From assembly GCA_964519305.1 (NCBI GenBank), contig CAZFHY010000001.1, positions 474,132-538,131 of the forward strand: a DNA stretch of 64,000 nucleotides. Direction: 5' to 3'. Each line of letters begins with the position of its first letter. Position 1 is the first letter of the stretch. Source of the DNA: Candidatus Undinarchaeota archaeon (GTDB lineage Archaea > SpSt-1190 > JASMDC01). The notes under the pieces were generated by a model. The model was not told the DNA's origin. It did no database searches and saw nothing but the letters and a program-made list of their open reading frames with translations. Below, piece by piece: positions 1 to 38,746 of this stretch. Made by a program: the position numbers and the translations under genes.

Positions 1-865
1 TGGCTATGTTATGCCACTGGTCATCCCACATGAGGACATAGCTGCCAGCACCCGGGTCAGGGACGTCGATGAAGCGCTTGGTTGTGGGCACTACGTGCTC
101 GACGAACTCCATGAGGTGCGTATGGTTTAGGGCAAGGGTCACGTACCCTATTTTCTCATCGTTCTCGAACACCGGGGTCACCCACCGGATGATGCCGTCG
201 AACCGGTCCCCGTTCGGACGCTCGACCCCCCTGTACGCACGAGTCGAGTTAACATGTTTCCCTACAAGGTGAGACACATAGATCTCACCTTCATCAAGCT
301 CTTTTACATGCTCGAAGTAGTCCTCGACACCAAGATATGTGTTCAAGGGATTCATCACATCGCGCAGGGTCGACTGCTTACCGTCCTTATGCACATGTAT
401 CACTTCGCGGCCGGTGAGGTCCACGAAGGTCATCTCGGAGTATAGAGGCACATTCTGTCGCTGATGGCCTAGATGAACTAGATGTCGCTTCGATTGCAGG
501 AACGCATGATAGACCTCTGGTCTCCGATCCAGGAACCGGGCGACCAGGATGTCGCCATCCCGCTCGTATAGGAAGTTAGCGATGCTACGCGCGAGCTCTA
601 CAGCGCGCATCTCGAGGGCCTCGATGGCCTTCGCGTCAAGTGCCTCGACACTGTCGTTCACCGCCGCGCGACCCAGCTCCCTGGCAGCGGCCAGATCCCG
701 CTCTCCCATGTTGGTGGAGCCCTCCACCGCGTTCATAGCGATGCCCCGGGCGTTCCATACGGCAATGTAGCCGACCACGATCAGAGGGATCACTGAGAGC
801 ACTAGGAAGAGGAGGAATAGTTTGGAGGAGATAGGCAGGTCGTTCAGCCGATCGAATGCTCCCAC
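1..865 (-). CDS. Membrane sensor protein, N-terminal part (TM helix + extracytoplasmic Cache-like region); probable histidine kinase or other signalling protein, truncated by window edge
   Basis: Not in ORF track because it runs off the edge. Manual translation from GTG 865 (alternative ATG 889) is open to position 1: ..LPISSKLFLLFLVLSVIPLIVVGYIAV (TM)..ARSIANFLYERDGDI..PLYSEMTFVDLTGRE..GEIYVSHL..FDGIIRWVTPVFENDEKIGYVTLALNHTHLMEFVEH; pattern typical of Cache-domain sensors. Confidence 0.75.
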   Translation of the reverse strand, partial: MGAFDRLNDLPISSKLFLLFLVLSVIPLIVVGYIAVWNARGIAMNAVEGSTNMGERDLAAARELGRAAVNDSVEALDAKAIEALEMRAVELARSIANFLYERDGDILVARFLDRRPEVYHAFLQSKRHLVHLGHQRQNVPLYSEMTFVDLTGREVIHVHKDGKQSTLRDVMNPLNTYLGVEDYFEHVKELDEGEIYVSHLVGKHVNSTRAYRGVERPNGDRFDGIIRWVTPVFENDEKIGYVTLALNHTHLMEFVEHVVPTTKRFIDVPDPGAGSYVLMWDDQWHNIA

Positions 866-22484: not shown

Positions 22485-22638
22485 GAAGGGCGGGACCAGA
22501 AATATAAAACTAGTGGGGACGGGGACCGCGGGGCCCGATTGTTCGTATCCTATAACAATACCTTAATAAGGTATCCACGCCTTCGCCTGATAAAGAGCTA
22601 TAAATCGTACGCTCTCAACGGTTTTGGAGGCCATTTTC

Positions 22639-25600
22639 ATGAAGGCGAAGGCATATACGACCCTTTCAATCATTCTAGCGCTGTTCATCGCGCTCGGTAC
22701 AGCCGCGGGATGCGACTATTCGGCTGGTGAGAACTGCCAGACCAAACCAAACATCTGTCCCTGCGATCTTCCCGAGTTCCCAAACTGCGATCCTTCGCAC
22801 GCCGACGCCGATGAGCGTGGATGCTGGGGCGAAGGCGGTAGCGGTGGCGCTACCGACTGTGGCCAGCACGTCACACAGGCAGCCTGCGACGTCACAGGTA
22901 TGTGCAAGTGGTGCGAGGGCGACTCGGCACCGAACAGCTGTTTCCCCATGGAATACACTTGCCAAGGGAGCACCGGCGGTTACTGTGGCGACAGCAATTG
23001 TGCAGGCACCGAGGGCGAGGACTGCAACACCTGTTCACAGGACTGTGGCTGCCCTTCTGGTGACATCTGCAAGAGCGACGGGCACTGTTCGCCGGACACA
23101 GCTACCTCTGGCTACTGCGGCGACTACTCATGCAATCCTGGCGAGGATTACACTACCTGCTGCAAGGACTGCAAGTGCCCTGACGGCACGCTCTGCGATA
23201 CCAACTCGAACACATGCGTCACCGACACCAGCAGCAGTAGTAATGACGACAGTGGCTACGTCTGCTGCCAGCCCTCGGAAAGTGGGGCTGATGCATGCCG
23301 CGTGGATCTCGGGGGCGCCTGCCCGAACGGATTCTCGCACCTCGATAACGAATGGGTGGATCCGTACAACCCCGCCAACTGCATCTACCCGGGACCGGGC
23401 GCGACGAACCCGCCCTTCTGTCCGGCGGACGGCAGCGGGACGAGCTCTGGGGACTACATCCCCCCCCGGCCCCCGTCCTACGACACCTGCGGCAACTGCC
23501 ACTGGGAGTGCATGTTCGAGGACAATAAGCCCGATTACGAGTGCGACAACCAGTGCGGGTCCGTGTGCGACACGGGGACCACATACCAGCCCGACCCGTC
23601 CTCAGAGCCTTCCGACCAGTGTCAGAACTGCCTCGACAAGTGCATGTACGAGATGCACCGCTCGAGCACGGAGTGCAAGGGGTTCTGCGAGTACGACTGC
23701 GGTGGTGCTGACGAGCCCACACCCACACCTTATACTTCAACGACCGATACCGGAGACCAGTGCGACAACTGCATGGACAAGTGCCGGTACGAGATGGGCC
23801 GTTCGACCTCTGAGTGCGAGGGCTTCTGCGAGTACGACTGCGGCGGAGGGGACACGGGTACAGATGACTTCGACACGTCCACTCCTTGTGGACAGTGCGA
23901 GTACCAGTGCGAGGTAGTGGAAAGGAAACCGGTCTACGAGTGCGATAAGATATGTGCACCCAAGTGCTCGGATTCGCCTCTCTTTGATAACGAATGCGAC
24001 AAGTGCTTCTACCAGTGCGTAGAGGTAGAGGGGAACTCGGAGTACAGATGCAAGGACAGGTGTCGGCCGGCCTGTGAGGGCGGCACGGAGCAGCCATCGG
24101 GCAACGAGTGCGATAATTGCTTGTACAAGTGCGTAGAGGTGGAGGGGAACCTGGAGTACAGGTGCAAGGACAGGTGCCAGCCGGTCTGTGGGAGCATTCC
24201 GGAACAGCATGATGATTGCGGTATCTGCACCCACGAGTGCGAGGTCGTCGAACGTAGGCCCACCTACGAGTGCAAGTCGCTCTGTCGTGACGTCTGCGAT
24301 GTGCCATTGGACACGGGTGATGCCCCCGACGTTAGAATCATCCCGACGACGGTCCGCCTGTACGAGCCCATGAACATTTGCAGAGGGAAGCTGAGCCTCG
24401 ACGACGTCGACATGACCCGTTCCGAGGCTTTCTTCACAGCCGTGCGACCTGATGGTGCCAAGGAAGGATTCAACATCAAGTTCGACGAGTTGAGATACTA
24501 CCCGTTCTTCATTCACTTCGGTACATTTGCCGTCCATGCGGACGAGAGCTCGAGCCTTGAGCGCGATGCCGCCAACATCAACATCCACAAGACCCCCGAG
24601 TGCGGGCCTTTCCCACCGCCGGACGACATCGGGGGTTCTGATGACGGCGGATGGCAGCCTTCGGGGGACGATATCCCCCCCAAGCCCCCGATCTACGACC
24701 GCTGCGGGACGTGCAAATGGAAGTGTGAGTTCGAGCAGAACCGTCCCGAGTACGAGTGCCGGGACGAGTGCGGCATTGTGTGCGGGGAGACCGAGGATCC
24801 CTGGGGAACGGACGAGTCCGATGAGTTCGACCTGTCAGAACCACCGTCCTACGCCTTCCGGGACCGACCTATGGAAGGCGGCTTTGTCGGTCGCCCCCTC
24901 CTGCTCAAGCTCAACGAGCCCGTCGAGGTGTGCGGGATGCAGTTCGAGGCGCTCGCCATCAATCCGGAGGAGCGCGTTCTGATGATAAAGGCAGTGTGGC
25001 CCGATGGTAAGGCCGAGGAGGTCGGTGTCGATATAGACCAGGTGCTCGCGGGGACCATGCACGGCCTCGTCAAGCACTTCGACACGGTGTCGCTCCACGT
25101 CCCCGAGCCTGATAACGAGGAGGACAAACCGCCAATCGCCCGGAACTGGGCCGTGCTCGCCGCGATGATACGGACGGACTGTGCGCCGTTCTCCCTCTCG
25201 GACCTCATGCGAGGACCTGGCGAGGATCCGACCGAAGGGCCAGGTGACGGGGATGCCATCGTCGCTGACATCGAGATACTGGACGACGGTCGGTTCATCA
25301 CCAAGCTCGAGCGAGGTCAATGGACTCTCGTGTGCAGCCGAAGGGTGCGGTACCTGGACCTCAAGGACGGCGGCAAGGTGGCCGTCGTCGAGGCGGACAC
25401 AGGGATCCGGATGCGCGAGCTACTCTTCAGAGCGGACACGTTCCACGATGAGGACGGCCGCGAGGTCACGGATGAACAACGCGTTGGCCTCAACATGGTA
25501 AAAGCGCTCAAGGACGGATTCCATGACGGCAACGTCCTCGCCATCCTCGTGAAGCCAGATCTCAGGTGTTCGGAGGAGCTCAAACAGCAGACGGGCGAGC

Positions 25601-27777
25601 AGCCCGTTCCCGGTGAGGGTCTAGAGCTCCCCAGCAGAATGATCTGCTGCGAACCAGAGGATGGTGCCGGTTCGGCCTGCATGGTCCCGATGCAAGGCAA
25701 GTGCCCCCGGGGCTTCAAAGCACTGGAGAACGAATGGATCGATCCGGACAGTAAGAACAATTGCATTTCTGATAGAGGCGTACGGCGCCCATTCTGTCGT
25801 GTCGGCCCTACCGATGAAGAAGGTCCGCAATGCGGTGACGGTGAGTGTCAGGAGAACGAGTCACAGGAGACCTGCTGCAAGGACTGTGGGTGCCCAGAGA
25901 ACATGAGCTGCAGGGACGACAGGTGTGTCGCGAGGGCTCCGGACAACACCCGTCAGTGTGCCACGTTCTGCGGCCGGGTGACCGAACCCGAGGTCTGCTC
26001 ATTCGCCTGCATGTCATGCCCGGACTGCACGGACAAGGCCCCACCATGGCCCTGTCTTACTGACTGTGTCAAGGCCGAAACGGGCATCGGTATGTCCGAC
26101 CTGTGCGACAAGCGGTGCTCAAGGTCTAAGGACCCGGATACCTGCAACGCAGTGTGCGGTTCATGTCACAAGTGCTTGTTCATGAAGGACGCCAACAGGT
26201 GTCTTACAAACTGCGCTAAGGACAAGCTTAAAGTGTTCGCCAAGCGGTGTGACGGCATCTGCGATTCCTTCGGCGAGAAGGACGTCTGCAATCCCATCTG
26301 CCGCGATTGTCGCAAGTGCGTAGTCGATCCCGATGACACTTGTGCCGAGGAGTGTGTCAGCGAGCGCCGGGGAACTATGAAGGATGCCTGTGAAGAGGCC
26401 TGCGTCGACGAGGGTCCTGAGTGCGTGGATAAATGCCTCAAGTGCAGGAAGTGTGTCCCTCAGCTCGGTAAGGACGGCCTCCCGGACTGCCTGCGTTCTT
26501 GTCTGGACTCCCAGGGCATGAAAAGGAAGATGCTCGACATGCTCAAGAAGGTCCAGGCAGAGGACGATGACATGGCCCGGAAGCTCCTGGTCGCCAGTGC
26601 CCTGGACGACAAGAAGAAAGAGCGCTTCCACAAGGCCATCGCCGACTCGCGCCACTCCATCAACGACCAGCGAGTCGATGATGCGAAGAAAGCCCTCGAG
26701 GACTTGGAGAAACAGCTGGCCGAGCTCAAGGAGCTCGAGATGAAGGTCAGGGTCCTTGAGAAGAAGGTGACGACGGTCAGGAAGAAGGTCGAGCGCAAGG
26801 ACCTAGCAAAACACGTTTCCATGTTCGTCAAGAACAGGGCCGTCGATGAGGGTGATAACGTCACCGACGATACTGCCGATGACATAGCCAACGACACCGT
26901 TGAGGTAACCGAGGAAGAGATCAACATCACCCTAGAGGCTGAGGTGCTCGAGGTCGAAGAGGGCGAAACCAAGGAGAACGTCAGCGTGTTCACCATCTCG
27001 GTCAAGAACCTCAAGGACAAGAACCTCACTGACGTCACCATTATCCAGTCCATCCCCAAGGAGATCGCGGAGAGCGCATCCGAGCTCGTGTTCGCCGGTG
27101 CTGTGACCATCATCGAGGACGATCCAATCGTTGGATGGGACCTCTCAATGCTCGAAGAGGAGGAAGAACATAAGCTCAGCTTCTCCACGAAGAAGAAGGT
27201 GGACCTTGATGCTATTGCCGACACCGAGACCGCTGCCGTCAAGGTAGCTGTCGAAGAGGTCGAGGTCAACACAATCGAGCAGGAGATGGCATCCGAGGAA
27301 GGAGTGACCGATACTGAGGAGACCAAGCAGGCAATGGTGGAGCGCATCGAGGCCAGCTCCGACCAGCCTACTGGTGCGGTCGCACCTGTCGAGGGAGCGC
27401 CTGACGACAAGCCCGCTGATGAAGCGGCCACCAAGTCCGAGCTTCCCTTCGGGCTGTCGGGCAAGGACCTGCGCGGACTGCTCCTTGTCCTCATGGCGGT
27501 CGTCGTGCTCGTTGCCATGGTGAAGACCGGTATGACCACGGGCGGTACGTCCTCAGTTAGCACGGTCGAGCAGGATCGCCTTGAGGAGGCCTTCGGTCAT
27601 GGTGAGGTCATCTCTGTCGAGGAGGACGGTGACGAGGTCGTCACAAAAGTGGAATCCCCGGTGAAGGTCGAGAAGAAGAAGGGCAAGGAGAAAACCGACA
27701 CCGAGGAGACCGAGGGGGAAACGGAAGAAGACGAAGAAGAGAGTGATGAAGAAGAGGACAAGGGGAAGGCAGAATAA
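22639..27777 (+). CDS. Giant modular Cys-rich cell-surface protein (~1,712 aa)
   Basis: GGAGG RBS + ATG 22639; signal peptide; ~130 Cys in repeated modules; coiled coil; acidic domain (IIQSIPKEIA..IIEDDPIVGW); C-terminal TM; acidic tail. Confidence 0.88.
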   Translation: MKAKAYTTLSIILALFIALGTAAGCDYSAGENCQTKPNICPCDLPEFPNCDPSHADADERGCWGEGGSGGATDCGQHVTQAACDVTGMCKWCEGDSAPNSCFPMEYTCQGSTGGYCGDSNCAGTEGEDCNTCSQDCGCPSGDICKSDGHCSPDTATSGYCGDYSCNPGEDYTTCCKDCKCPDGTLCDTNSNTCVTDTSSSSNDDSGYVCCQPSESGADACRVDLGGACPNGFSHLDNEWVDPYNPANCIYPGPGATNPPFCPADGSGTSSGDYIPPRPPSYDTCGNCHWECMFEDNKPDYECDNQCGSVCDTGTTYQPDPSSEPSDQCQNCLDKCMYEMHRSSTECKGFCEYDCGGADEPTPTPYTSTTDTGDQCDNCMDKCRYEMGRSTSECEGFCEYDCGGGDTGTDDFDTSTPCGQCEYQCEVVERKPVYECDKICAPKCSDSPLFDNECDKCFYQCVEVEGNSEYRCKDRCRPACEGGTEQPSGNECDNCLYKCVEVEGNLEYRCKDRCQPVCGSIPEQHDDCGICTHECEVVERRPTYECKSLCRDVCDVPLDTGDAPDVRIIPTTVRLYEPMNICRGKLSLDDVDMTRSEAFFTAVRPDGAKEGFNIKFDELRYYPFFIHFGTFAVHADESSSLERDAANINIHKTPECGPFPPPDDIGGSDDGGWQPSGDDIPPKPPIYDRCGTCKWKCEFEQNRPEYECRDECGIVCGETEDPWGTDESDEFDLSEPPSYAFRDRPMEGGFVGRPLLLKLNEPVEVCGMQFEALAINPEERVLMIKAVWPDGKAEEVGVDIDQVLAGTMHGLVKHFDTVSLHVPEPDNEEDKPPIARNWAVLAAMIRTDCAPFSLSDLMRGPGEDPTEGPGDGDAIVADIEILDDGRFITKLERGQWTLVCSRRVRYLDLKDGGKVAVVEADTGIRMRELLFRADTFHDEDGREVTDEQRVGLNMVKALKDGFHDGNVLAILVKPDLRCSEELKQQTGEQPVPGEGLELPSRMICCEPEDGAGSACMVPMQGKCPRGFKALENEWIDPDSKNNCISDRGVRRPFCRVGPTDEEGPQCGDGECQENESQETCCKDCGCPENMSCRDDRCVARAPDNTRQCATFCGRVTEPEVCSFACMSCPDCTDKAPPWPCLTDCVKAETGIGMSDLCDKRCSRSKDPDTCNAVCGSCHKCLFMKDANRCLTNCAKDKLKVFAKRCDGICDSFGEKDVCNPICRDCRKCVVDPDDTCAEECVSERRGTMKDACEEACVDEGPECVDKCLKCRKCVPQLGKDGLPDCLRSCLDSQGMKRKMLDMLKKVQAEDDDMARKLLVASALDDKKKERFHKAIADSRHSINDQRVDDAKKALEDLEKQLAELKELEMKVRVLEKKVTTVRKKVERKDLAKHVSMFVKNRAVDEGDNVTDDTADDIANDTVEVTEEEINITLEAEVLEVEEGETKENVSVFTISVKNLKDKNLTDVTIIQSIPKEIAESASELVFAGAVTIIEDDPIVGWDLSMLEEEEEHKLSFSTKKKVDLDAIADTETAAVKVAVEEVEVNTIEQEMASEEGVTDTEETKQAMVERIEASSDQPTGAVAPVEGAPDDKPADEAATKSELPFGLSGKDLRGLLLVLMAVVVLVAMVKTGMTTGGTSSVSTVEQDRLEEAFGHGEVISVEEDGDEVVTKVESPVKVEKKKGKEKTDTEETEGETEEDEEESDEEEDKGKAE
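23488..24297 (+). repeat. Seven tandem C-x2-C-x3-C-x10-C-x3-C-x3-C protein repeats (eighth copy ~24703-24783)
   Basis: e.g. CQNCLDKCMYEMHRSSTECKGFCEYDC / CDNCMDKCRYEMGRSTSECEGFCEYDC / CDKCFYQCVEVEGNSEYRCKDRCRPAC. Confidence 0.9.
25957..26502 (+). repeat. Four tandem 8-Cys protein repeats (CxxxC..CxxxCxxCxxC..CxxxC)
   Basis: CATFC..CSFACMSCPDC..CLTDC; CDKRC..CNAVCGSCHKC..CLTNC; CDGIC..CNPICRDCRKC..CAEEC; CEEAC..CVDKCLKCRKC..CLRSC. Confidence 0.88.
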
Positions 27778-27911
27778 CCTCCCCTTGTGCCCTCTCCGAG
27801 GAACCCCCGCTGTTAAAGGATAGACTTATAAGCCGGATACCGCGACCAGCCCTGACATAATGTGTCACGGCGTCGCTTTCCGAAATGTATATAAGCGTCC
27901 AGAGACATATA

Positions 27912-27939: not shown

Positions 27940-29934
27940 ATGGAAATGCAAGCGTCCGGTGATGTGGCCGGCGGTGGATTGACCGGCCAGGGTGTCGAGG
28001 GAGGTCCCCATTTCTTCTACACCGACGTCAACGGTACCCGCGTAGAGAACTATCAGACCGATTTGGACGCCATCGTAGGCAACCTGGGCGGCGATTTCAA
28101 GTATGGGGTGTCACCCCAGGGCTATGTCGCGACCTTGCTCGATGGAGATGCTTCCTGCCATTCGCTTGAGTACGGCGGCAGGCAGGTGCACAATACCGTA
28201 AACGGCATCCTGGAGCTACGTCCGGTCAAGGGCGGCGATGAGCTCTCGGCCACGGAGCTGGAGTACGCCCAAGAGGGTGATACATACCTCCCCATCGTGA
28301 AAGCGACCTACGGCGACGTCGCCACTGGTGAATTCTTCTCAACAACCGACGGTATAGGTGTAGCGCGCTACCATGGTAAGGACGTCGACACTGTCAAGGA
28401 TCCTCGTGTATTCATCCGCAACGAGTCCAGCCCCAACGTCTATCTGAAGCAGACCGACGCTCAGGCGCGAACGGGGACCGTCGACATCGACGGTGACTCC
28501 CAGTCGTACTTCGTCGAGATCAACCACATGAAGGGCGATACCTGGGGCGAGAACCGCGCGATCATCACGCTCACCTATGACAAGGACGGGGAGCACAACG
28601 TCCTCTTCGCCATGAGCCCGTACAAGGACGCGGACTCCATGGCCTCCCGCATGATCGAGAAGGTCGGTAAGATCGACCAAGAGATGGAGAAGGCCAAGGG
28701 TCAGTATTCCAAGATCATGAAGGAAAAGGGTATCGATGTGTTCGGTACGTTCATCGACCATCTGGAGAATGTCGTAGACACCTACGGGGGCATCCCCCAG
28801 CGTATCCGTATCGACGGCAAGCCCGCCTCCACATGGGGCGAGCAGGTCGACCAGTTCGCGATCCCGCTATCGACCATCCGCGAGGTCGGCGAGGGTATCG
28901 GCCGCGCCGCGCCCGCCCGCCGCACCGAGGAGCACGACCGCCTGTACAATGTGGGCGAGCTCCTGGAGGTCATGCACTTCTTCCCAAAGCACGCCACGTT
29001 CTCGGCGAGTCTGCCCTTCGACGCCACCGCGGTCCCCCTGCAGTCCACTGACGGGAAGATCCGCTACACCGCTTCCGGTGGCTACGGCGGCATGGAGTGG
29101 CCCGGCCGGGACGGCGCCCACATCGCAGGTGACCTGGCCCGGGACGGCTGGCACCGGTTCTCCTCAAAGCAGGACCTGTACAAGGAGTCCTGGCCGCTTG
29201 TCGAGAAGCTCGTCGGCAAGCTCGAGGAGAAGATGGGCCCCAATAACGAGGTCCCTTGGTCCTTCTGCCCCTGGGAACACTTCGCAGGTAAGCTCTCATA
29301 TGTAGGTATCGAGGTGAGCCAGGGACTGAGGAACGCTGCCCACATCGCCGAGGAGCTCGGGTACACCGACAAGGCCCGCGACTGGGAGAACAAGGCCGAC
29401 ATTCTCAAGCAGAAGACAATCGACCAGTTCTGGAACAACGACCAGGGCTACTTCATTCGCGAGGAGCACGACGGACACCTGGACGCATCGCCCAACATGT
29501 CCGCCATCCTCAACGGATTCCTGGACCTCTCTAAGGACAACGAGCGCAACATGGCCGAGCGCATCCTGGCGGCCGTGGACCCGCGCTCCGCGGAGTTCGG
29601 CGGCATCCTCCGCATGGAGGACGAGTACTACATCGGTCGCAACCCGTGGTTCGTGTGCACCGGTCAGTACGTCCAGGCGACCGAGAAGCTGGCCAAGGCC
29701 GAGGACGCAGCCGGTGACAGGGGCGCTGCCCAAGTCTACCGCGATGTTGCTGACGGATTCATCTCCTGGATGGAGGAGCACCAGAACGACTCGGGCACCT
29801 ACCCCGAGCAGAAGATGTTCCACCAGCCACCACGGACCGACGACGGCTCCAATATCCCACCCCTTGAAGGCTGGACACTGCTCCCCTGGTCCGAGGTAGA
29901 GGTCCGCAAGGCCCTTATCGCCCGGGACGAGTAA
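27940..29934 (+). CDS. Divergent GH15-like six-hairpin glycoside hydrolase
   Basis: SAS..GGYGGMEWPGRD, WGEQVDQ, PWEH (acid), FWN..GYFIR, LDAS, GGILRMEDEYY, NPWFVCT, GTYPEQ (base), LPWS; first two repeat units in swapped order. Confidence 0.8.
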   Translation: MEMQASGDVAGGGLTGQGVEGGPHFFYTDVNGTRVENYQTDLDAIVGNLGGDFKYGVSPQGYVATLLDGDASCHSLEYGGRQVHNTVNGILELRPVKGGDELSATELEYAQEGDTYLPIVKATYGDVATGEFFSTTDGIGVARYHGKDVDTVKDPRVFIRNESSPNVYLKQTDAQARTGTVDIDGDSQSYFVEINHMKGDTWGENRAIITLTYDKDGEHNVLFAMSPYKDADSMASRMIEKVGKIDQEMEKAKGQYSKIMKEKGIDVFGTFIDHLENVVDTYGGIPQRIRIDGKPASTWGEQVDQFAIPLSTIREVGEGIGRAAPARRTEEHDRLYNVGELLEVMHFFPKHATFSASLPFDATAVPLQSTDGKIRYTASGGYGGMEWPGRDGAHIAGDLARDGWHRFSSKQDLYKESWPLVEKLVGKLEEKMGPNNEVPWSFCPWEHFAGKLSYVGIEVSQGLRNAAHIAEELGYTDKARDWENKADILKQKTIDQFWNNDQGYFIREEHDGHLDASPNMSAILNGFLDLSKDNERNMAERILAAVDPRSAEFGGILRMEDEYYIGRNPWFVCTGQYVQATEKLAKAEDAAGDRGAAQVYRDVADGFISWMEEHQNDSGTYPEQKMFHQPPRTDDGSNIPPLEGWTLLPWSEVEVRKALIARDE

Positions 29935-30025: not shown

Positions 30026-30637
30026 CTATCCGTGCCGCGGGTCCCTATGACGCCGATGGGACACGATGCGGGCCATCTTCTCGTTCTCGACCCTGAGCTG
30101 GTCCCGCTCTGCAGAGAGCTTGGCGACCTTGTCCACTGTCTGGGACATGGTGAGATCGGCCTCATGTACCTTCTTACAGGCCGAAGATAGTCCGCTGACC
30201 TCGCGCCGCATTGCGGCCATGTCCTTAGCGAGCCCCTCCATTTCCCCACCCAGGCGCTGTGTGCGTTCAACGCCCTGAGCAAGGCGACCGACCTGATCCT
30301 CGACTGACTGGACCACACGCTCTTCGATGGCCCCGGCGACGGCCTCGCAGAGACCTTCCCGCACCACGCCGAGTTCGGCCAGCTCTCGTCGCAATCGACG
30401 CATCCCATCCTCCACGTCCTTGGAGAGAGCTGCAGTGCGCTCAAGCTGAGCGGCCTCCTGCTCAAGGCCTTTGGAGAGCCTCGTGTCCAGTTCATCGACG
30501 CGTTGCTCCATGGCCTCAACGCGGTCGACCATACCACTAAGCTTCTGGTCGATGGATTGGACTGCCTTCAGCACCTTGGAAGCAGCCTCATCGCTATGAC
30601 GCATTGCTTCAAGCGAACCCTTGAGCGTACCGTACAT
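30026..30637 (-). CDS. Hypothetical coiled-coil protein
   Basis: 203 aa heptad-rich; GGGGGTGG RBS-like site; co-oriented 14 bp after 30652-31056. Confidence 0.75.
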   Translation of the reverse strand: MYGTLKGSLEAMRHSDEAASKVLKAVQSIDQKLSGMVDRVEAMEQRVDELDTRLSKGLEQEAAQLERTAALSKDVEDGMRRLRRELAELGVVREGLCEAVAGAIEERVVQSVEDQVGRLAQGVERTQRLGGEMEGLAKDMAAMRREVSGLSSACKKVHEADLTMSQTVDKVAKLSAERDQLRVENEKMARIVSHRRHRDPRHG

Positions 30638-30651
30638 GACAGGCCACCCCC

Positions 30652-31056
30652 CTATGAAGAGGTCTTCTCCCGGCGGAGCTTGGGTGTCGCCTTCTCACGC
30701 CTGGACTCCAGCGCGGCCTCGATGTTCACGATCTCCCCACGAACGGTCCCAACAAATTGGGCGAGGTTCTGGAGGAAAGAACGCTGACGCTCGGTCTTGA
30801 GCTCGTCCCATCGCGTATCCTTAAGGCGGTCGAGCACATTCAGGGCAGCATCGATCACTGGATCGAAAGCGACCGACCGGCCCAGCAGCTCAGATCCCAG
30901 GTTCTCGAGCGTTTGGCTTCCTTGACGGACGACCTCCAGGTTCCGTCGAAGCTCGTACTGGTCGGCATCATCGATGCCCGAAGGAATCCTCTTGGCGGTG
31001 GCGTCGAAAGCGGCGATGGCCTTGGAAAGGACATCCAGAGCGTCTTTCCGTCCCAT
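30652..31056 (-). CDS. Hypothetical helical protein
   Basis: 134 aa; promoter AAAACGTTTTTATC ~24 nt upstream. Confidence 0.7.
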   Translation of the reverse strand: MGRKDALDVLSKAIAAFDATAKRIPSGIDDADQYELRRNLEVVRQGSQTLENLGSELLGRSVAFDPVIDAALNVLDRLKDTRWDELKTERQRSFLQNLAQFVGTVRGEIVNIEAALESRREKATPKLRREKTSS

Positions 31057-33543: not shown

Positions 33544-34815
33544 TTGGATATCGGTAGTCTCAAAAACAGGATTGGTGAACTGGAGAAGCAGCGGAACGAC
33601 TGCTCGAAAGAGATTGACGAGTCGAAAGGTCGACGCGATCTCCTTAATCAGAAGATTCGTGAGTCTGCCGAGAGTATCAAAGAACTGCGCAAGTCTCGTG
33701 ATGAGGCCAACGCACAAGTGCGGGAACAGAAAGCGGAGCGCGCTCGCATCCAGAAGCTCGTGAACGATCAGCGGAGGGTAATGCGGGATAAGCGCGACCT
33801 GTTCCGCAAGATGATGAAGGACGCGCCCACGCGTATGAGCCCGCAGGAGATCAAGGAAACCATCGATAAGATGGAGTTCGAGTTCCAGACTAATGCCATG
33901 AGCATCGATCAGGAAAAGCGGTTCATGCAGAAGATCAAGACACTGGAGCGCACCTATCAGGTCAGGATGAAGGCGGAAGACGTCCATCAGGATATGATGA
34001 AGGCCGGTGATGAGCTGGACAAGCTCCGGGAGCAGGTGGAGACCGCTCACAAGAAAGTTGTCGAGTCCTCCGAGCTCTCGCAGCAGCACCATGAAGCTCT
34101 CATCGGCCTCTCCCGACAGATGGACCCCATGCGCCGGGACGCCGACGAATCACATCGTTCCATGGTCGCGTCATTGGAACGCAAGAAGGAGATCAATGGC
34201 AAGCTTGCCGAGGTCCGGAAACAACTGCTAGAGGTCAAGGCGGAACGTCAGGCCCATGACCTGGCCGAACGCGAGGCCGCCCTCAAACATAAGGCAGATG
34301 GTATCAAGGAGAAGTTGAAGGGAAAGAAGCGATTCGACCTTCGCCAACTCCAGATACTCGCCCAGACCGGTGAGGGCTTCTCCTTCGGAGGCGATGACGG
34401 CGAAGCTGTGAATATCGAAGGTAAGAGGGACTTCAAGAAGAGGAAGGCCGCGGAGAAGACTGAATCGAAGACGAAGGCTCCACCCAAGAAGGAGTCCAAG
34501 GTCGAAGAGGCCTCCGAGAAACCAGCGCCGAAAAAGAAGACACCGACAAAGAAGAAGGCCCCTCCCAAAAAGGAGTCCAAGGTCGAAGAAGCCTCCGAGA
34601 AACCGGCACCGAAAAAGAAGACGCCGGCAAAGAAAAAGGCCCCATCCAAAAAGGAGTCCAAGGTCAAAGAGGCCTCCGAGAAACCGGTGCCGAAAAAGAA
34701 GACACCGGCAAAGAAGAAGGAGGTGCCCCCTGTAGAGGACGCACAACCCACAACTCCGTTAGCGATCTCAAAGGACGCGCAGCTCGAGGAAGCCCTACAG
34801 GTCGAGGACATCTAG
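33544..34815 (+). CDS. Archaeal coiled-coil protein (COG1340-like) with Lys/Pro-rich repetitive tail
   Basis: Long heptads, MEFEFQT..SIDQEKRF motif, KLKGKKRFDL; TTG start uncertain. Confidence 0.8.
   Translation: MDIGSLKNRIGELEKQRNDCSKEIDESKGRRDLLNQKIRESAESIKELRKSRDEANAQVREQKAERARIQKLVNDQRRVMRDKRDLFRKMMKDAPTRMSPQEIKETIDKMEFEFQTNAMSIDQEKRFMQKIKTLERTYQVRMKAEDVHQDMMKAGDELDKLREQVETAHKKVVESSELSQQHHEALIGLSRQMDPMRRDADESHRSMVASLERKKEINGKLAEVRKQLLEVKAERQAHDLAEREAALKHKADGIKEKLKGKKRFDLRQLQILAQTGEGFSFGGDDGEAVNIEGKRDFKKRKAAEKTESKTKAPPKKESKVEEASEKPAPKKKTPTKKKAPPKKESKVEEASEKPAPKKKTPAKKKAPSKKESKVKEASEKPVPKKKTPAKKKEVPPVEDAQPTTPLAISKDAQLEEALQVEDI
34477..34719 (+). repeat. 3 x 81-bp tandem repeat (27-aa unit APPKKESKVEEASEKPAPKKKTPxKKK)
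   Basis: Units start at 34477, 34558 and 34639. Confidence 0.92.
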
Positions 34816-35425: not shown

Positions 35426-36640
35426 ATGACGGATATCAAGCGCATCGGCATCCTCACGAGCGGCGGTGACTGTGGCGGTCTCAACGCAGTCATCAAGGGC
35501 ACTGCCCGTATGGCCAATGCCCTCGGCATCGAGGCCTATGTCATCCCGAACGGCTACGCCGGCCTCTACAACCTCGTGGAGTTCGAGAGCCTGACGCTAC
35601 TCACGTCCGACCGTATCGACAACGTGAACGCCGCGCTCGCGGGTTCCGAGGCAGGCCACTCGCGCGTCAAGATCAGGAAGATCAAGGACGAGGGCAAGTA
35701 CGATCGAATAAAGAAAGGCTTGGCCAAGTTCAGCATCGACGCCCTGGTCATCTCCGGCGGGGACGACTCCGGGTCAGTGATGGTCGACCTGGACGCTCAA
35801 GGTATCCCCTGCATCCATGTCCCCAAGACAATGGACCTGGACCTCCAGACCTACAGCGTCGGGGCCGATTCCACCATCAACCGCATCGCAAACTTCACCG
35901 AGGACCTCAAGACCACCGGCCGTACCCACAATCGGGTCATCGTGCTCGAGGTGTTCGGCCGATATGCCGGACATACGGCATTTCGGGGAGGTATCGGTGC
36001 TGACGCGGACTGCATCCTCATCCCCGAGATCCCGGCCGACTTCGACGTCGTGTACGAGCACGTGAAGAAGGTTTACATGGACAGGATCCGCGCCAGCGAT
36101 GTCAATGCCGGTACTTACATACTCATCGTTGCCGAGGGCCTGCGGGACGCCAGCGGTAAGGAGCTGGTGGACGAGAGCGCAGGTGTTGACGCCTTCGGTC
36201 ACAAGAAGCTTGCGGGTGCGGGCAAATTCGTCCGACAGGAGCTGTCCCGACGCTTCGCGGCAGACCCCGAGGTCCCCGTCTTCATGAAAGAACAGGGGCT
36301 CTTCGTGGAAGGGCTCTACGTGGCACCCGAGGTGCGCGAGGTGCGTCCCGGTCACCTTGTGCGCTGCGGACGGTCCTCTGCTTTCGATGTGAACTTCGGT
36401 AAGGAGGGAGGGGCCGCGGCCATCCACCTCCTTCTCGAAGGCCTTTCGGGCGTCAGTGTGGTAGAGGTGGACGGCAGTAGCATCCTCTACAAACCTACTG
36501 CTGAGGTCATCGAACAGCGCCATGTGGACCTGGACCTCGTCTCGCTCTACGAGGCACAGGGAGTGTGCTTCGGCCGAGAGCCGAAACCCTTCCGCCCAGC
36601 TGTAACGAAGCAGGAAGGGAAGGTCTGGCGCCACCTCTGA
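35426..36640 (+). CDS. pfp: PfkA-family phosphofructokinase, probably PPi-dependent
   Basis: TSGGDCGGLN, GGDDS and PKTMDLD (Asp/Lys pair typical of PPi enzymes), EVFGRYAG, AEG, DAFGH. Confidence 0.85.
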   Translation: MTDIKRIGILTSGGDCGGLNAVIKGTARMANALGIEAYVIPNGYAGLYNLVEFESLTLLTSDRIDNVNAALAGSEAGHSRVKIRKIKDEGKYDRIKKGLAKFSIDALVISGGDDSGSVMVDLDAQGIPCIHVPKTMDLDLQTYSVGADSTINRIANFTEDLKTTGRTHNRVIVLEVFGRYAGHTAFRGGIGADADCILIPEIPADFDVVYEHVKKVYMDRIRASDVNAGTYILIVAEGLRDASGKELVDESAGVDAFGHKKLAGAGKFVRQELSRRFAADPEVPVFMKEQGLFVEGLYVAPEVREVRPGHLVRCGRSSAFDVNFGKEGGAAAIHLLLEGLSGVSVVEVDGSSILYKPTAEVIEQRHVDLDLVSLYEAQGVCFGREPKPFRPAVTKQEGKVWRHL

Positions 36641-36686
36641 GACTACAGGATCCGCGTCAATGAACGCGGGAATGATGCTCTCGAGC

Positions 36687-37835
36687 TCACTTGGCCAGTT
36701 CCCGGTAGACCGCCAGAGTCCCCTCACACATGGCCTTTCGGTCGAACCGTCCCGCTCGTTCACGAGCTGCCTTCCCGAACGAGACACCGCGGTCATTTTT
36801 CGCCAACAGCTCGACTAGTGCCTCGCCGAAGGCGTACCGGTCACGTGGATCGCGAACCAGTCCGCTAACCTCGTCCTCTACGAGCTCGGCACACCCTCCC
36901 TGGGACGAGACCAGCACCGGTCTACCCCTGGCCATAGCCTCTAGGCCGACCACACCGAATGGTTCGTAGAGAGATGGGAGGACCACGACGTCGGCGGCAT
37001 CAAGTAATCCCCACTTGTGGGCCGAATCGAGAGTCTGCGGTATGAAGTGGATGCGAGAGGCCAAACCCTTGGCCCGTGCGTTGGCCTTCAAGGTCTCGGT
37101 ATCCGGGCCGCTCCCCGCGTACACCAGCTGACAGTCGTCCAGCTTGCGCGCGGCGAACGAAAAGGCGGATAGGAGCTCCCGGCATCCTTTTGGCTTGGTA
37201 ATCCGCCCGATGAACACGGCAAGAGGCGCGTCCCCCAATCCCATCGAGTGTCGGACTTCCTTCGCTTCCATGGCAGGAGCGGCCGCGATGTCCTTGATGG
37301 GGAGCCCGTGTGCTACGTGCCTGAGCTTTTCCCCAGCACATCCAAGGTCCCGGGCTTCCTTAGCCATGAACTCCGATGCTACGACCACGAGGTCCGCGGC
37401 CTCCACGGCACGTCGCTCCAGCTTCGCGAGCTGGGGGCTCCCAGCTCCAAGGGACCGACCTTTTTCGGTCGAGTGGAGCGTGATTAAGAAAGGGACACTC
37501 TTGGCCGCAGCCAGTGCGGGGGCAGCGATGGCGCCGAGCCAGTCGTGGGCATGGACGAGGTCAGTGGGCTCCTCCAGTGCCGCGTGATAGGCTGCGAGGT
37601 TGTATGCTGCGATATTGGCCATGAACCGTGCTGTGCGATCCCCACCGAAAAGCTCGGCCAGATAGGGTCCGACCGGGGCGGGCACCACGGTATGGATTCG
37701 AGGATCATCCACCTTCGAGCGGGCATAGATAGTAACATCCGCATCTGCCATTCCCCTCATCAGGCCTTCCACATGGACCATGAGACCAGATGGTGCTCCG
37801 GGCACGTACTCGGGCACGAGCATCGATGCTTTCAT
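36687..37835 (-). CDS. GT4 glycosyltransferase (GT-B, possible alpha-glucan synthase)
   Basis: GLMVHV, HAHDW, TLHSTE, GRITKPKG, PSLYEPFGVVGLEAMA. Confidence 0.9.
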   Translation of the reverse strand: MKASMLVPEYVPGAPSGLMVHVEGLMRGMADADVTIYARSKVDDPRIHTVVPAPVGPYLAELFGGDRTARFMANIAAYNLAAYHAALEEPTDLVHAHDWLGAIAAPALAAAKSVPFLITLHSTEKGRSLGAGSPQLAKLERRAVEAADLVVVASEFMAKEARDLGCAGEKLRHVAHGLPIKDIAAAPAMEAKEVRHSMGLGDAPLAVFIGRITKPKGCRELLSAFSFAARKLDDCQLVYAGSGPDTETLKANARAKGLASRIHFIPQTLDSAHKWGLLDAADVVVLPSLYEPFGVVGLEAMARGRPVLVSSQGGCAELVEDEVSGLVRDPRDRYAFGEALVELLAKNDRGVSFGKAARERAGRFDRKAMCEGTLAVYRELAK

Positions 37836-38611
37836 TCACCCTCACCCCCCTCAAAGAGATACGGGTAGAATGACTCCTGGAACTTTTCCGTGTGCCTTCC
37901 AGACCACCAGTAGTCAACGTAGCCCCGACCGAAGGCCAGGAATCCGGCCAGACGCGTTCCCAGTGACATGGGAGGCTCGTCAACGCCCAAGAAAAGGAGC
38001 TTATCGTCCACAAGAAGAAGAGTGAGGGCAAGGCCCTCACCTCCGATGAATCTTATCATGGCCTCTGCATCAGGGAAACGACCCTGAGCCTCCTCGCATG
38101 CCAGAACCCGTACATCGATCCCCCGTGACCGGGCGTCCGATAGCGCGGGCCCGATCCCTGACATGAGCTCGAGTCGTGGGTCTATTGCATGCACCGTTGC
38201 CGATGCGGTCCCCACAGCGTCGCGTGTGGCCGTCACCAAGGCCTTTCTGTTCGGTAAGAACCAGAGCTCACCTACTTCCTGAGGACCCCCACGAGATGCG
38301 AACAACTGGCCAAGCTCGGCGATTCTCTTCTCGGCCTCCTCTAAATGCTCCCGCTGCTTCGTGACGCGTGGCCCGAGACGGTCAGGAGGGAGAGGTGCAT
38401 ACCGCTTTGGACGCTCGGGTATGACGCGGGCGAGCCCTGCATCGACGAGACGGTTGAGCACATCGTAGACCTTGGACTGAGGGATACCGCTCTCCCGTGT
38501 CACAGCGCTCGGTTTCGCCTCACCAAGTCGTACCAATGCCTCGTAGGCTTTGGCCTCGTACTCGCTGAGACCCAGAAGGGAGAGTGCGTCCATCACCGAT
38601 AGTCCGGCCAT
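37832..38611 (-). CDS. trmB: TrmB-family transcriptional regulator
   Basis: LGLSEYEAKAY..GIPQSKVYDVLNRL wHTH + PLD-like effector domain; 4-bp overlap with GT4. Confidence 0.9.
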   Translation of the reverse strand: MAGLSVMDALSLLGLSEYEAKAYEALVRLGEAKPSAVTRESGIPQSKVYDVLNRLVDAGLARVIPERPKRYAPLPPDRLGPRVTKQREHLEEAEKRIAELGQLFASRGGPQEVGELWFLPNRKALVTATRDAVGTASATVHAIDPRLELMSGIGPALSDARSRGIDVRVLACEEAQGRFPDAEAMIRFIGGEGLALTLLLVDDKLLFLGVDEPPMSLGTRLAGFLAFGRGYVDYWWSGRHTEKFQESFYPYLFEGGEGE

Positions 38612-38646
38612 GGTTTTCCATCGCCATGCACCTTTTTATGTGAGGA

Positions 38647-38677
38647 TTGAGTATTTGTTACTACTCAACAGTAGTTA
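38647..38677. promoter_or_regulatory. Nested palindromes, candidate TrmB operator between trmB and GH15
   Basis: TTGAGTA-N8-TACTCAA (38647-38668) overlapping ACTACT-CAAC-AGTAGT (38660-38675). Confidence 0.65.
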
Positions 38678-38746
38678 GAACCCTTGCGGTGGTTCCAATC
38701 CCATAAATAAACCGCCTGACTATAATATATCGTGGATGGGGCGCCG

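Follow-up and report, generated by a model that had tools for sequence, protein, structure and literature searches.

An archaeal GH15-like glycosidase with its first two barrel hairpins encoded in reversed order

A gene in the window (the whole stretch of 64,000 nucleotides that was analysed, from a Candidatus Undinarchaeota archaeon) encodes a GH15-like protein, P0001, in which the first two hairpins of the barrel stand in the order 2-1 along the chain with their motifs retained. Neither an artefact nor gene decay accounts for this order, which is natural, selected and conserved. P0001 is probably a functional, cytoplasmic, divergent GH15-like glycosidase, in which hairpins 1 and 2, although encoded as 2-1, would form a canonical three-dimensional barrel by means of rewired loops.

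Gene and domain organization

The gene and its parts, in window positions, are as follows.

27940..29934, plus strand: whole gene (from the ORF list), permuted GH15-like glycosidase P0001, 664 amino acids and a stop codon
27940..28614, plus strand: N-terminal beta-sandwich domain, residues 1-225 (mainly strands in AF2, with low to medium pLDDT)
28615..28746, plus strand: long linker helix, residues 226-269, which runs into H3 and not into H1
28747..28899, plus strand: unit 2, residues 270-320, made up of hairpin H3-H4 and its loop on the catalytic face, moved to first place
28900..28944, plus strand: H4-H1 connector, residues 321-335, a junction absent from canonical GH15
28945..29163, plus strand: unit 1, residues 336-408, made up of hairpin H1-H2 and its loop, moved to second place
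29164..29931, plus strand: residues 409-664, with hairpins 3-6 in their canonical order (canonical and TIGR01577 profiles)
29275-29277, plus strand: codon of the putative general acid Glu446 (PWEH), within hairpins 3-6
29806-29808, plus strand: codon of the putative general base Glu623 (PEQ), within hairpins 3-6

Unit 2 bears G283, Q287, R288, G293, W299, G300, Q302 and D304, and unit 1 bears Y382, W387, R390 and D391. The linker helix spans 228-263 in AF2 model 1 and 4-37 in model 2, and hairpins 3-6 have a pLDDT of 85-98 in model 1. The N-terminal domain (residues 1-225) had no match by sequence profile (Pfam and the canonical GH15 profile).

The source of the window is a metagenome-type assembly, and the organism is a marine archaeon. 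Public records label the P0001 protein 'hypothetical'. A scan for sigma-70 promoters and terminators found none exceeding shuffles, and no tRNAs were found within the window.

A preliminary description of positions 28735-29285 (residues 266-449 of P0001) had claimed that the first two units are swapped relative to the canonical GH15 at 38747. All the motifs that it quoted were found, in the sequence that it gave: the unit 2 motifs FIDHL..GGIPQRIRIDG..WGEQVDQFAIPL at 271-310, the connector GEGIGRAAPARRTEEH at 318-333, the unit 1 motifs LYNVGELLEVMH..ATFSAS..GGYGGMEWPGRDGAHIA at 336-396, and the unit 3 motifs LYKESWPLVEK..PWEH at 413-447, with PEQ at 622-624. The frame is intact over the 664-residue ORF as described, and both catalytic Glu motifs (W445-E446 and E623-Q624) are present in all four permuted proteins. 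The protein at 38747 does have the canonical order (unit 1 at 251-310, unit 2 at 314-385, unit 3 at 388-621). Since 2-1-3-4-5-6 is no cyclic shift of 1-2-3-4-5-6, 'non-circular permutation' is also the right term.

Order of the hairpins along the chain

A canonical profile made from 41 canonical relatives was searched against the 4 permuted proteins, and it matched every one of them in three pieces that are gapless along the profile and crossed along the sequence. Profile positions 331-378 fell on residues 270-316 (unit 2; 23.7 bits, iE 3.3e-9 in this four-sequence search), positions 295-329 on residues 372-408 (unit 1; 9.4 bits, iE 7.4e-5) and positions 381-587 on residues 407-624 (hairpins 3-6; 130 bits, iE 1.7e-41). 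When residues 226-406 were shuffled 300 times, no domain scored above 0.1 bits, against the 23.7 and 9.4 bits observed, a crossing well in excess of chance. Genome-derived canonical GH15 proteins served as controls, and all 80 gave one collinear match, whereas the match was crossed in 4/4 permuted proteins. To our knowledge, the six hairpins are collinear in all described GH15 members.

The same order was obtained with sub-profiles built solely from 80 unrelated genome loci (the search for related genome loci was run with an 8-row alignment). In P0001 these sub-profiles matched unit 2 (280-306, iE 1e-6), unit 1 (375-407, iE 4.5e-4) and unit 3, in that order, and the unit 1 sub-profile had an iE of 1.4e-4 to 8.5e-4 across all four permuted proteins. 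TIGR01535 positions 324-362 matched residues 272-310 (unit 2) and TIGR01577 positions 363-585 matched residues 402-624 (hairpins 3-6). Among 54 proteins, 39 had unit 1 before unit 2, only P0003 and P0004 had unit 2 before unit 1, and 13 were without one or both matches. A single collinear alignment to GH15 over this region had been named beforehand as the result that would speak against the permutation; each of the profiles used gave a crossed alignment.

Pfam, BLASTP and PDB sequence searches by themselves reach only residues ~414-445 to 625, a span from which the order is undecidable. In local MAFFT trials the unit 1 and unit 2 pieces were never alignable together in one run. An alignment from three sub-ranges per canonical locus, in which MAFFT put unit 1 pieces on 409-560, was dropped.

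Family membership and closest relatives

P0001 matches PF00723 (GH15, six-hairpin glycosidase clan) with 24.6 bits, above the cutoff of 22 (E 1.4e-5), and the match is limited to residues 445-624 (profile positions 171-401 of 427). P0004 falls slightly under the same cutoff, with 21.5 bits. Of the barrel, Pfam recognizes no more than the distal 60%; collinear profile methods will therefore under-annotate permuted enzymes. ESM Atlas returned generic six-hairpin glycosidase clusters only.

The canonical-order sister proteins are P0009 (585 amino acids) and P0055 (599 amino acids), uncharacterised metagenomic proteins with 63% mutual identity and an overall identity to P0001 of ~23-28%. At E 0.01 they are missed by Pfam as well. 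They carry the variants of the permuted family (GYGGMEW-RD and PQR(V/L)RIDG.P.SEWGEQLDQ), but in the order 1-2. P0009 is collinear both with the canonical profile (positions 300-606 on residues 250-571) and with TIGR01577 (residues 252-571 on positions 289-604). In a tree of the unswapped part only, P0009 and P0055 form the sister group of the 4 permuted proteins (SH-like support 0.93), and the permuted family is found on a long branch.

Active site and probable function

The substrate-binding motifs Y....WxRD (hairpin 1) and QR...W..QxD (hairpin 2) are both present and invariant, and are reversed along the chain. The eight unit 2 residues listed above are invariant in 44/44 canonical and 4/4 permuted rows. 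In unit 1, Y382 and R390 occur in 41/41 canonical rows and W387 and D391 in 40/41. In the remaining hairpins W445, R558 and E623 occur in 40/41 canonical rows each and E446 in 38/41. All of these unit 1 residues, together with W445, R558 and both catalytic Glu, are kept in 4/4 permuted proteins. E446 and E623 are presumably the general acid and the general base, as in GH15 enzymes, and we take Y382, W387, R390, D391, W445 and R558 to be residues of the -1 subsite.

Between P0001 and P0004, conservation is highest in the swapped hairpins: unit 2 is 69% identical and unit 1 73-85%, compared with 53% for the rest and 36% for the linker helix. The H4-H1 connector has 0 of its 15 residues identical, against 52% overall.

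GH15 enzymes remove terminal alpha-glucosyl residues with inversion. By analogy with them, the activity of P0001 is most likely the inverting release of a non-reducing-end alpha-glucosyl residue. It is unlikely that the protein is permuted and folded yet no inverting alpha-glucosidase, being instead a transglycosylase, an enzyme for a different sugar or a binding protein. Such a function would fit the solved structure that P0001 matches best in sequence, dextran dextrinase 9ju0 (E 6.3e-5, also Foldseek rank 1), which is described as a retaining transglucosylase and GH15 homolog (PMC12446779). It would also fit the scores of P0001 against the NCBIfam equivalog models, whose cutoffs are all missed widely: 87.2 vs 820.7 bits for TIGR01577 (oligosaccharide amylase), 19.4 vs 741.9 for TIGR01535 (glucan 1,4-alpha-glucosidase) and 15.9 vs 1000 bits for NF041085 (TreH2). 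The neighbouring genes of P0001 suggest no pathway, and position 447, directly after the general acid, is His in 4/4 permuted proteins and Glu in 31/41 canonical ones. Against these points stands the conservation described above, with the catalytic Glu and sugar-binding residues found in 4/4 permuted and 38-41/41 canonical rows.

Predicted structure and the places of the hairpins

The GH15 entries occupy the top ranks in the VIA structure comparison. The whole model (31..664) was superposed on the bacterial glucoamylase 1lf6_A (25..668) with Z 23.7 and an rmsd of 3.9 over 380 aligned residues. Twelve helices of an (alpha/alpha)6 barrel are assignable when the two predicted models are combined, neither of which is confident on all twelve. 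In AF2 model 1, made from a global MAFFT alignment, residues 241-320 have a pLDDT below 50 and unit 2 is unplaced. In model 2 unit 2 is placed at moderate confidence, and unit 1 has a pLDDT below 50.

Residues 326..664 of model 1 superpose on 12..377 of isomaltose glucohydrolase 5z3a (VIA: Z 25.9, rmsd 2.8, 283 aligned), which therefore puts unit 1 at the H1-H2 site. Structural alignments of model 2 begin in the linker helix (e.g. model residues 3..439 on 5z3c 9..377), and the linker helix may therefore hold the H1 position there.

The region was also folded as two chains, residues 265-331 against 332-664. The ipSAE was 0.86, compared to 0.00 for the best of 3 controls; among solved complexes 58 of 80 attain this mark, among mismatched pairs 2 of 110. 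Contact agreement between runs was at least 90% and partner pLDDT at least 75. The confident contacts of unit 2 are with H2 (384-401), the H2-H5 loop (404-410), H5 (412-431), the acid loop (439-446), H6 (454-469) and residues 344 and 525, and none are on H7 or H9-H12. Judging by the geometry of the fold, hairpin 2 of an alpha/alpha toroid would be expected to have these neighbours. The two-chain fold severs the chain connectivity, which is the very matter in question, and was made with alignments from this analysis; the predictor may reproduce solved GH15 structures that it has learned, and the result so shows likeness and not closure of the linked chain.

An arrangement in which the hairpins sit in space in their new sequence order was also considered. 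Unit 2 would then lie beside the last hairpin and unit 1 beside hairpin 3, with loops exchanged, a new pocket geometry and a specificity new to GH15. Such an exchange is improbable. The sequence order alone would permit short loops, neither single-chain model places both hairpins confidently, and the His in place of Glu after the general acid in 4/4 permuted proteins, on a long branch, would also fit it. However, every residue of the canonical pocket that comes from either hairpin is retained, which is hard to explain if the hairpins meet other partners. The H4-H1 junction consists of 15 unconserved residues, whereas neighbouring helices would be joined by a turn of 3-6 residues. The superposition of model 1 and the contacts of unit 2, which involve H2, H5 and H6 but not H9-H12, likewise speak for retained places, the latter with the caveat that the predictor may have learned GH15 structures.

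Collinear reading of the gene

If there were no permutation, P0001 would be a collinear GH15 protein whose true unit 1 had decayed before residue 270 and whose residues 321-408 were an insertion with a chance likeness to unit 1. Some results would allow this. When P0009 is left out of the canonical profile, the unit 2 match persists (iE 1.3e-7), but the unit 1 match drops to 0.1 bits (iE 0.05), the level of the top shuffle. Residues 367-410 can also be aligned locally, in a collinear way, to the last part of unit 2 in P0008, P0020 and P0024.

Most of the evidence points to the permuted order. Residues 226-269 form one long helix without the unit 1 motif, and their best local matches in 120 canonical proteins are scattered (83 in the rest region, 36 in the N-domain or linker and 1 in unit 1). 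The permuted-family profile matched unit 1, H1 included, in both canonical-order relatives (positions 319-406 on P0055 208-290, iE 5.8e-8; positions 336-424 on P0009 211-294, iE 2.6e-7), and residues 336-408 matched the loci-only unit 1 sub-profiles in 4/4 permuted proteins. The best Smith-Waterman match of residues 336-408 was canonical unit 1 in 76/120 canonical proteins (12/120 when shuffled), and that of residues 270-320 was canonical unit 2 in 109/120 (13/120 when shuffled); these trials are non-independent because the target proteins are interrelated. The pocket residues Y382, W387, R390 and D391 fall on invariant canonical columns, and unit 1 is the most conserved segment. The collinear reading is very unlikely.

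Distribution, selection and genuineness

The preliminary description called for homologs sharing the swapped order and for support of the junctions, and both were found. Orthologs with the same order and frame are P0003 (97% identity), G001 (94%, same genus) and P0004 (52%, from another source), and the 90% cluster of P0001 has 12 members on many contigs. An exhaustive representative search gave only P0003 and P0004 as further permuted relatives among 51 matches. Word searches with the whole protein and with residues 266-412 alone (406 candidates) yielded no additional ones, and among the genomes of 41 relatives and 17 phylum genomes full-length matches were found in G000 and G001 only.

Against the same-genus ortholog, dN/dS is 0.079 for the whole gene and 0.077 for residues 270-408. 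In per-run contigs of X1, X5 and X7 the swapped region (28747-29163) and its junctions are covered with zero differences. The whole gene is spanned by the X5 contig only; in X1 and X7 there is a break (29731/29752) that does not touch the swapped region. X9, from the third study, has variant contigs that bridge 28637-28821, 28800-28980 and 29097-29604. All three junctions are thus bridged by contigs from 3 studies, with no joints or indels reported.

That the gene is an assembly chimera or a decaying pseudogene is scarcely credible: the assembly is of a metagenome type and a loose end of one X9 contig falls precisely on 28900 (its 30 loose letters are unlike the window), but the order and frame are identical in G000, G001, P0003, P0004 and the 12-member cluster, the junctions are bridged in 3 studies, dN/dS is 0.08, and loose ends in X9 (9 in all at a likeness threshold of 85) are expected from other organisms in the sample.

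Proposed wiring and origin

In the preferred reading, that of a canonical barrel with rewired loops, units 1 and 2 are predicted to keep their ancestral places in the barrel. Unit 1 would supply Y382, W387, R390 and D391 to the active site, unit 2 would supply Q287, R288, W299, Q302 and D304, and E446 and E623, as general acid and base, would be unaltered. The change in wiring would be confined to the barrel face opposite the active site. There the linker would lead into H3, H4 would be joined to H1 via the free 15-residue connector, and H2 would be joined to H5 via a loop of ~8-9 residues obliged to pass hairpin 2.

The preliminary description had left a choice between a rewired topology and a reshaped active site with a new specificity. 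The former is favoured: the active-site residues of both hairpins are kept, and the two-chain fold would place unit 2 between H2 and H5/H6. For the latter nothing was found beyond the change of E447 to His beside the general acid.

The permuted family probably arose once, from a canonical-order ancestor common with P0009 and P0055. A likely route would be the rearrangement of a two-hairpin block, e.g. by a tandem duplication of 1-2 after which the outer copies were lost. None of the proteins examined has the duplicated intermediate (1-2-1-2), and the DNA direct repeats at the junctions belong only to families of 12-17 nt, at chance level.

Comparison with known systems

The canonical relative in the same genome, P0002 (38732..40603, plus strand), is TreH1-like, of the same superfamily as P0001 and, like it, with an N-terminal domain. 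It is a distant paralog: BLASTP aligns just residues 445-561 of P0001 to 434-546 of P0002, with 28% identity. P0002 sits in a sugar-related cluster (TrmB, a GT4 glycosyltransferase and PFK).

Prokaryotic GH15 (1lf6, 5z3a, the TIGR01577 model and archaeal TreH1/TreH2) have in common with P0001 the N-terminal domain and the (alpha/alpha)6 barrel, as well as the W-E acid, the P-E-Q base and the Y..WxRD and QR..W..QxD motifs. The unit 2 loop GGIPQRIRIDGKPASTWGEQVDQ of P0001 is similar to GMIPQNTWISGKPYWTGIQLDEQ of 1lf6. P0001 differs from them in the reversal of hairpins 1 and 2 and in the second Glu of WEE, which is replaced by His.

A full-text literature search found no paper on such an exchange in GH15, six-hairpin glycosidases or alpha/alpha barrels. 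If true, this would be the first natural swap of adjacent hairpins to be documented for an alpha/alpha toroid, and the barrel would be foldable with crossed connections. The canonical-order sisters P0009 and P0055 allow a direct comparison. Whether hairpins of a toroid need to be in sequence order for folding, how long a crossing loop must be and how rewiring affects catalysis become testable questions.

Non-circular permutations within a domain are rare in proteins; the HK97-like fold of phage BPP-1 is reportedly one such case. As a general rule, stated in PMC10085705, permutations of proteins change the order of the elements while their three-dimensional places stay. In glycosidases, GH70 (mentioned in PMC12446779) has a (beta/alpha)8 barrel whose order is circularly permuted relative to GH13. 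P0001 differs from both GH70 and BPP-1 in its fold and in the nature of the change, which is an exchange of two adjacent alpha-hairpins in an alpha/alpha toroid.

Hairpin order in P0001

The GH15-like protein P0001 (664 aa) is encoded by a single intact open reading frame at 27940..29934 on the plus strand. Its helix limits were taken from two AF2 models and the profile boundaries.

Anatomy of P0001 (residues)
1-225: N-domain
228-263: linker helix
267-282 (H3), loop, 310-323 (H4): unit 2
321-335: connector
330-345 (H1), long loop, 390-401 (H2): unit 1
402-409: loop H2-H5
410-432: H5, then H6 to H12 in normal order (unit 3, from H5 on)

Judged by sequence comparison, the hairpin order in P0001 really is swapped, with hairpin 2 before hairpin 1. 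When P0001 was searched exhaustively against 1.84 billion cluster representatives, 51 proteins came back at E <= 0.001, and crossed local matches were seen when these were re-scored with all filters off. The clearest crossed case is P0009, an uncharacterised metagenomic relative with canonical order (query 341-425 to 217-296, 275-326 to 292-346, 438-624 to 375-552). A canonical profile built from 41 canonical-order relatives gave three matches on each of the four permuted proteins (P0001, P0003, P0004 and the ortholog in the same-genus genome G001), which adjoin in the profile and cross in the sequence.

Matches of the canonical profile
Unit 2: profile 331-378, residues 270-316, 23.7 bits
Unit 1: profile 295-329, residues 372-408, 9.4 bits
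Unit 3: profile 381-587, residues 407-624, 130 bits

The top score in 300 shuffles of residues 226-406 was 0.1 bits. P0009 and P0002, the canonical GH15 of the window, are collinear with this profile, and all 80 GH15 proteins taken from genome records gave one collinear match (profile 2-620). Against these controls, the swapped unit order claimed in the preliminary description is borne out in all four permuted proteins, and the crossed local matches it expected from a GH15 HMM alignment are those of units 2 and 1. In a profile without P0009 the unit 1 match falls to 0.1 bits. Sub-profiles made from the 80 loci only, and so independent of P0009, placed unit 2 at 280-306 (iE 1e-6), unit 1 at 375-407 (iE 1.4e-4 to 8.5e-4) and unit 3 from 411 in all four permuted proteins. 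Among 54 other stored proteins the order was u1-u2-u3 in 39 and u2-u1-u3 in two (P0003, P0004); the remaining 13, which are fragments or too diverged, miss one unit or both.

Smith-Waterman comparisons with 120 canonical proteins, which are related targets and hence not independent trials, matched residues 270-320 best to canonical unit 2 in 109 (shuffled: 13) and residues 336-408 best to unit 1 in 76 (shuffled: 12) and to unit 2 in one. Three canonical proteins can alternatively be aligned locally in collinear fashion across residues 367-410.

Standard searches detect only the distal part of P0001. The Pfam GH15 match is confined to residues 445-624 (profile 171-401 of 427; 24.6 bits, cutoff 22), BLASTP against P0002 aligned only 445-561 with 434-546, and the closest solved structure by sequence, dextran dextrinase 9ju0, matches across 427-625. 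P0001 lies far under every NCBIfam equivalog threshold. As a control of the unit placement independent of the profiles above, NCBIfam matches TIGR01535 324-362 to its residues 272-310 and TIGR01577 363-585 to its residues 402-624.

Conservation and reality of the arrangement

P0001 and P0004 are 69% identical in unit 2, 73-85% in unit 1, 45% in the N-domain and 53% in the rest, and share 0 of 15 residues in the connector. The displaced hairpins are therefore the most constrained parts, with a free linker between them. All hairpin-borne residues of the conserved GH15 motifs are kept in the four permuted proteins. In unit 1, Y382 and R390 occupy columns invariant in 41 of 41 canonical rows (W387 and D391: 40 of 41), and the unit 2 columns G283, Q287, R288, G293, W299, G300, Q302 and D304 are invariant in 44 of 44. 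Elsewhere the counts out of 41 are W445 40, E446 38, R558 40, Y564 38 and E623 40. E446 and E623 are kept in all four, so both catalytic Glu motifs are retained, as first described; the catalytic roles are those we presume from the GH15 literature. Only residue 447 departs notably: it is His, against Glu in 31 of 41 canonical rows.

The arrangement is neither an artefact nor a pseudogene. Order and frame are unchanged in G001 (94% identity) and also kept in P0003 (97%) and P0004 (52%, from another source), and dN/dS against G001 is 0.079 for the whole gene and 0.077 for residues 270-408. The intact frame noted originally is thus shared by homologs of the same order, and the main inference, a natural non-circular permutation, is upheld. 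The complete stretch is present in eight sequencing runs from two studies. Contigs of runs X1, X5 and X7 show zero differences over the swapped region and across its junctions, and variant contigs of X9, from a third study, span all three junctions (28637-28821, 28800-28980, 29097-29604). The junctions, for which read coverage had been proposed as a check, are supported at the level of contigs. No joints or indels were reported in run contigs over the P0001 region.

One further X9 contig matches from 28900 on, the exact boundary of unit 2 and connector. Its preceding 255 letters are unrelated, and the 30 loose letters shown of it are unlike the window. It probably comes from another organism that matches the GC-rich connector; less probably, it could represent a differently arranged relative.

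In a set of 5.8 billion protein clusters, only P0001's own cluster and P0004 were found to have the permuted form. The 90% cluster of P0001 has 12 members on many contigs; those named are 'hypothetical protein' of Candidatus Undinarchaeales MAGs, and a single partial carries the label Methanopyri. No full-length match was found in the 39 other relatives' genomes searched or in 15 other genomes of the phylum.

Canonical-order sisters and origin

P0009 (585 aa) and a second uncharacterised metagenomic relative, P0055 (599 aa), are 63% identical and share the motif variants GYGGMEW.RD and PQR.RIDG.P.SEWGEQLDQ with the permuted proteins, in canonical order.

Matches of the permuted-family profile on P0055
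319-406 to 208-290: iE 5.8e-8, H1 included
270-315 to 295-344: iE 8.5e-11
426-625 to 374-565: iE 4.8e-15

In a FastTree tree made from the unswapped part only (profile 381-615; 56 sequences), P0009 and P0055 group with the four permuted proteins (SH-like support 0.93), both groups being on long branches. The simplest reading of these sequences would be one single rearrangement in an ancestor of canonical order.

Predicted three-dimensional arrangement

Canonical units 1 and 2 cannot both align to the permuted query in one MAFFT alignment, and two complementary AF2 models were therefore made. Model 1 (alignment A1, deep for unit 1 and the rest) has a mean pLDDT of 65.5, high from residue 330 and below 50 at 241-320. 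Its residues 326..664 superpose on nearly the whole chain of isomaltose glucohydrolase 5z3a (12..377; Z 25.9, rmsd 2.8, 283 aligned), and the whole model on bacterial glucoamylase 1lf6_A (25..668, Z 23.7). These superpositions put unit 1 in the predicted H1-H2 place and leave a hairpin-sized part of the target unmatched. Model 2 (A6, deep for unit 2 and the rest) has a mean pLDDT of 71.7, with unit 2 at 57-79 and unit 1 below 50. Its structural alignments start in the linker helix, so the occupant of the H1 place is ambiguous there.

Residues 265-331 and 332-664 were also folded as two chains, each with correctly aligned relatives (A2, A7). The ipSAE was 0.86 (best of three controls 0.00); among solved complexes 58 of 80 attain this mark, among mismatched pairs 2 of 110. 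Contact agreement between runs was at least 90% and partner pLDDT at least 75. Confident unit 2 contacts fall on H2 (384-401), the H2-H5 loop (404-410), H5 (412-431), the acid loop (439-446), H6 (454-469) and residues 344 and 525; H7 and H9-H12 receive none. H4 (306-314) forms the tightest pairs, with H5 and H6. By fold geometry, this set would be the neighbourhood of hairpin 2 in an alpha/alpha toroid. The two-chain fold drops chain connectivity, and its success may reflect memory of solved GH15 barrels; it shows that the pieces resemble a canonical barrel and does not imply closure of the linked chain. Estimated roughly from geometry (inner ring ~8 Å, outer ring ~17 Å, 60 degrees per hairpin), each new connection would cover ~19 Å. 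The two new loops have at least 6-15 and about 8-9 residues (canonical turns about 3-6), which on this estimate can be long enough for the crossing.

Genomic surroundings

22624-27777 (+): 1717-aa ORF, directly upstream of P0001
30026-31056 (-): coiled-coil
33544-34815 (+): coiled-coil
35426-36640 (+): PFK
36687-37835 (-): GT4 glycosyltransferase
37832-38611 (-): TrmB-type regulator
38732-40603 (+): canonical GH15, P0002

The last four form a sugar-related cluster (35426-40603). GatD/GatE, L10P and L1 in the vicinity of P0001 mark the organism as an archaeon, and the gene neighbours gave no pathway clue. Pfam gives no match for the 1717-aa ORF at E <= 0.001. Its sequence is extremely rich in Cys and repeats a short multi-Cys module many times. 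Close to the C-terminus a single hydrophobic stretch precedes an acidic tail, and judged by its sequence the ORF resembles a giant surface protein. The 162-nt gap upstream of ATG 27940 holds two TATA-like boxes, CTTATAAG at 27826 and TATATAAG at 27888, which are compatible with an archaeal promoter of the gene's own. Two coiled-coil ORFs lie downstream on the opposite strand. The matches of a 203-aa coiled-coil ORF in Pfam are weak and coiled-coil-type, a 134-aa one has no Pfam match, and a DUF7121 protein is close to the coiled-coil ORFs at 30026-31056 and 33544-34815. P0002 is nearest to archaeal trehalase TreH1 (E 1.3e-99), yet its 334 bits fall short of the cutoff, 820.

The source genome G000 (42 contigs, 3.63 Mb) is 99.8% complete with 4.3% contamination, and its congener G001 has 3.8 Mb. 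Both are three to six times bigger than the 15 other compared genomes of the phylum (0.6-1.2 Mb). If the binning is right, G000 is unusually large for a Candidatus Undinarchaeales-type group.

Relation to known systems

P0001 is most likely, as predicted from sequence, a cytoplasmic inverting exo-alpha-glucosidase-type enzyme, and its sequence shows no hydrophobic segment at the N-terminus. The full-text literature searched, whose coverage leaves out most subscription journals, yielded no account of a GH15 or six-hairpin barrel in permuted order. Non-circular permutations of proteins are known and rare (PMC10085705), and the permutation of the GH70 barrel is a circular one (PMC12446779). P0001 clearly belongs to the GH15 superfamily but departs from an implicit feature of that family, the collinear order of its hairpins. 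It represents a new topological variant, with a predicted 3D wiring, within an established enzyme family.
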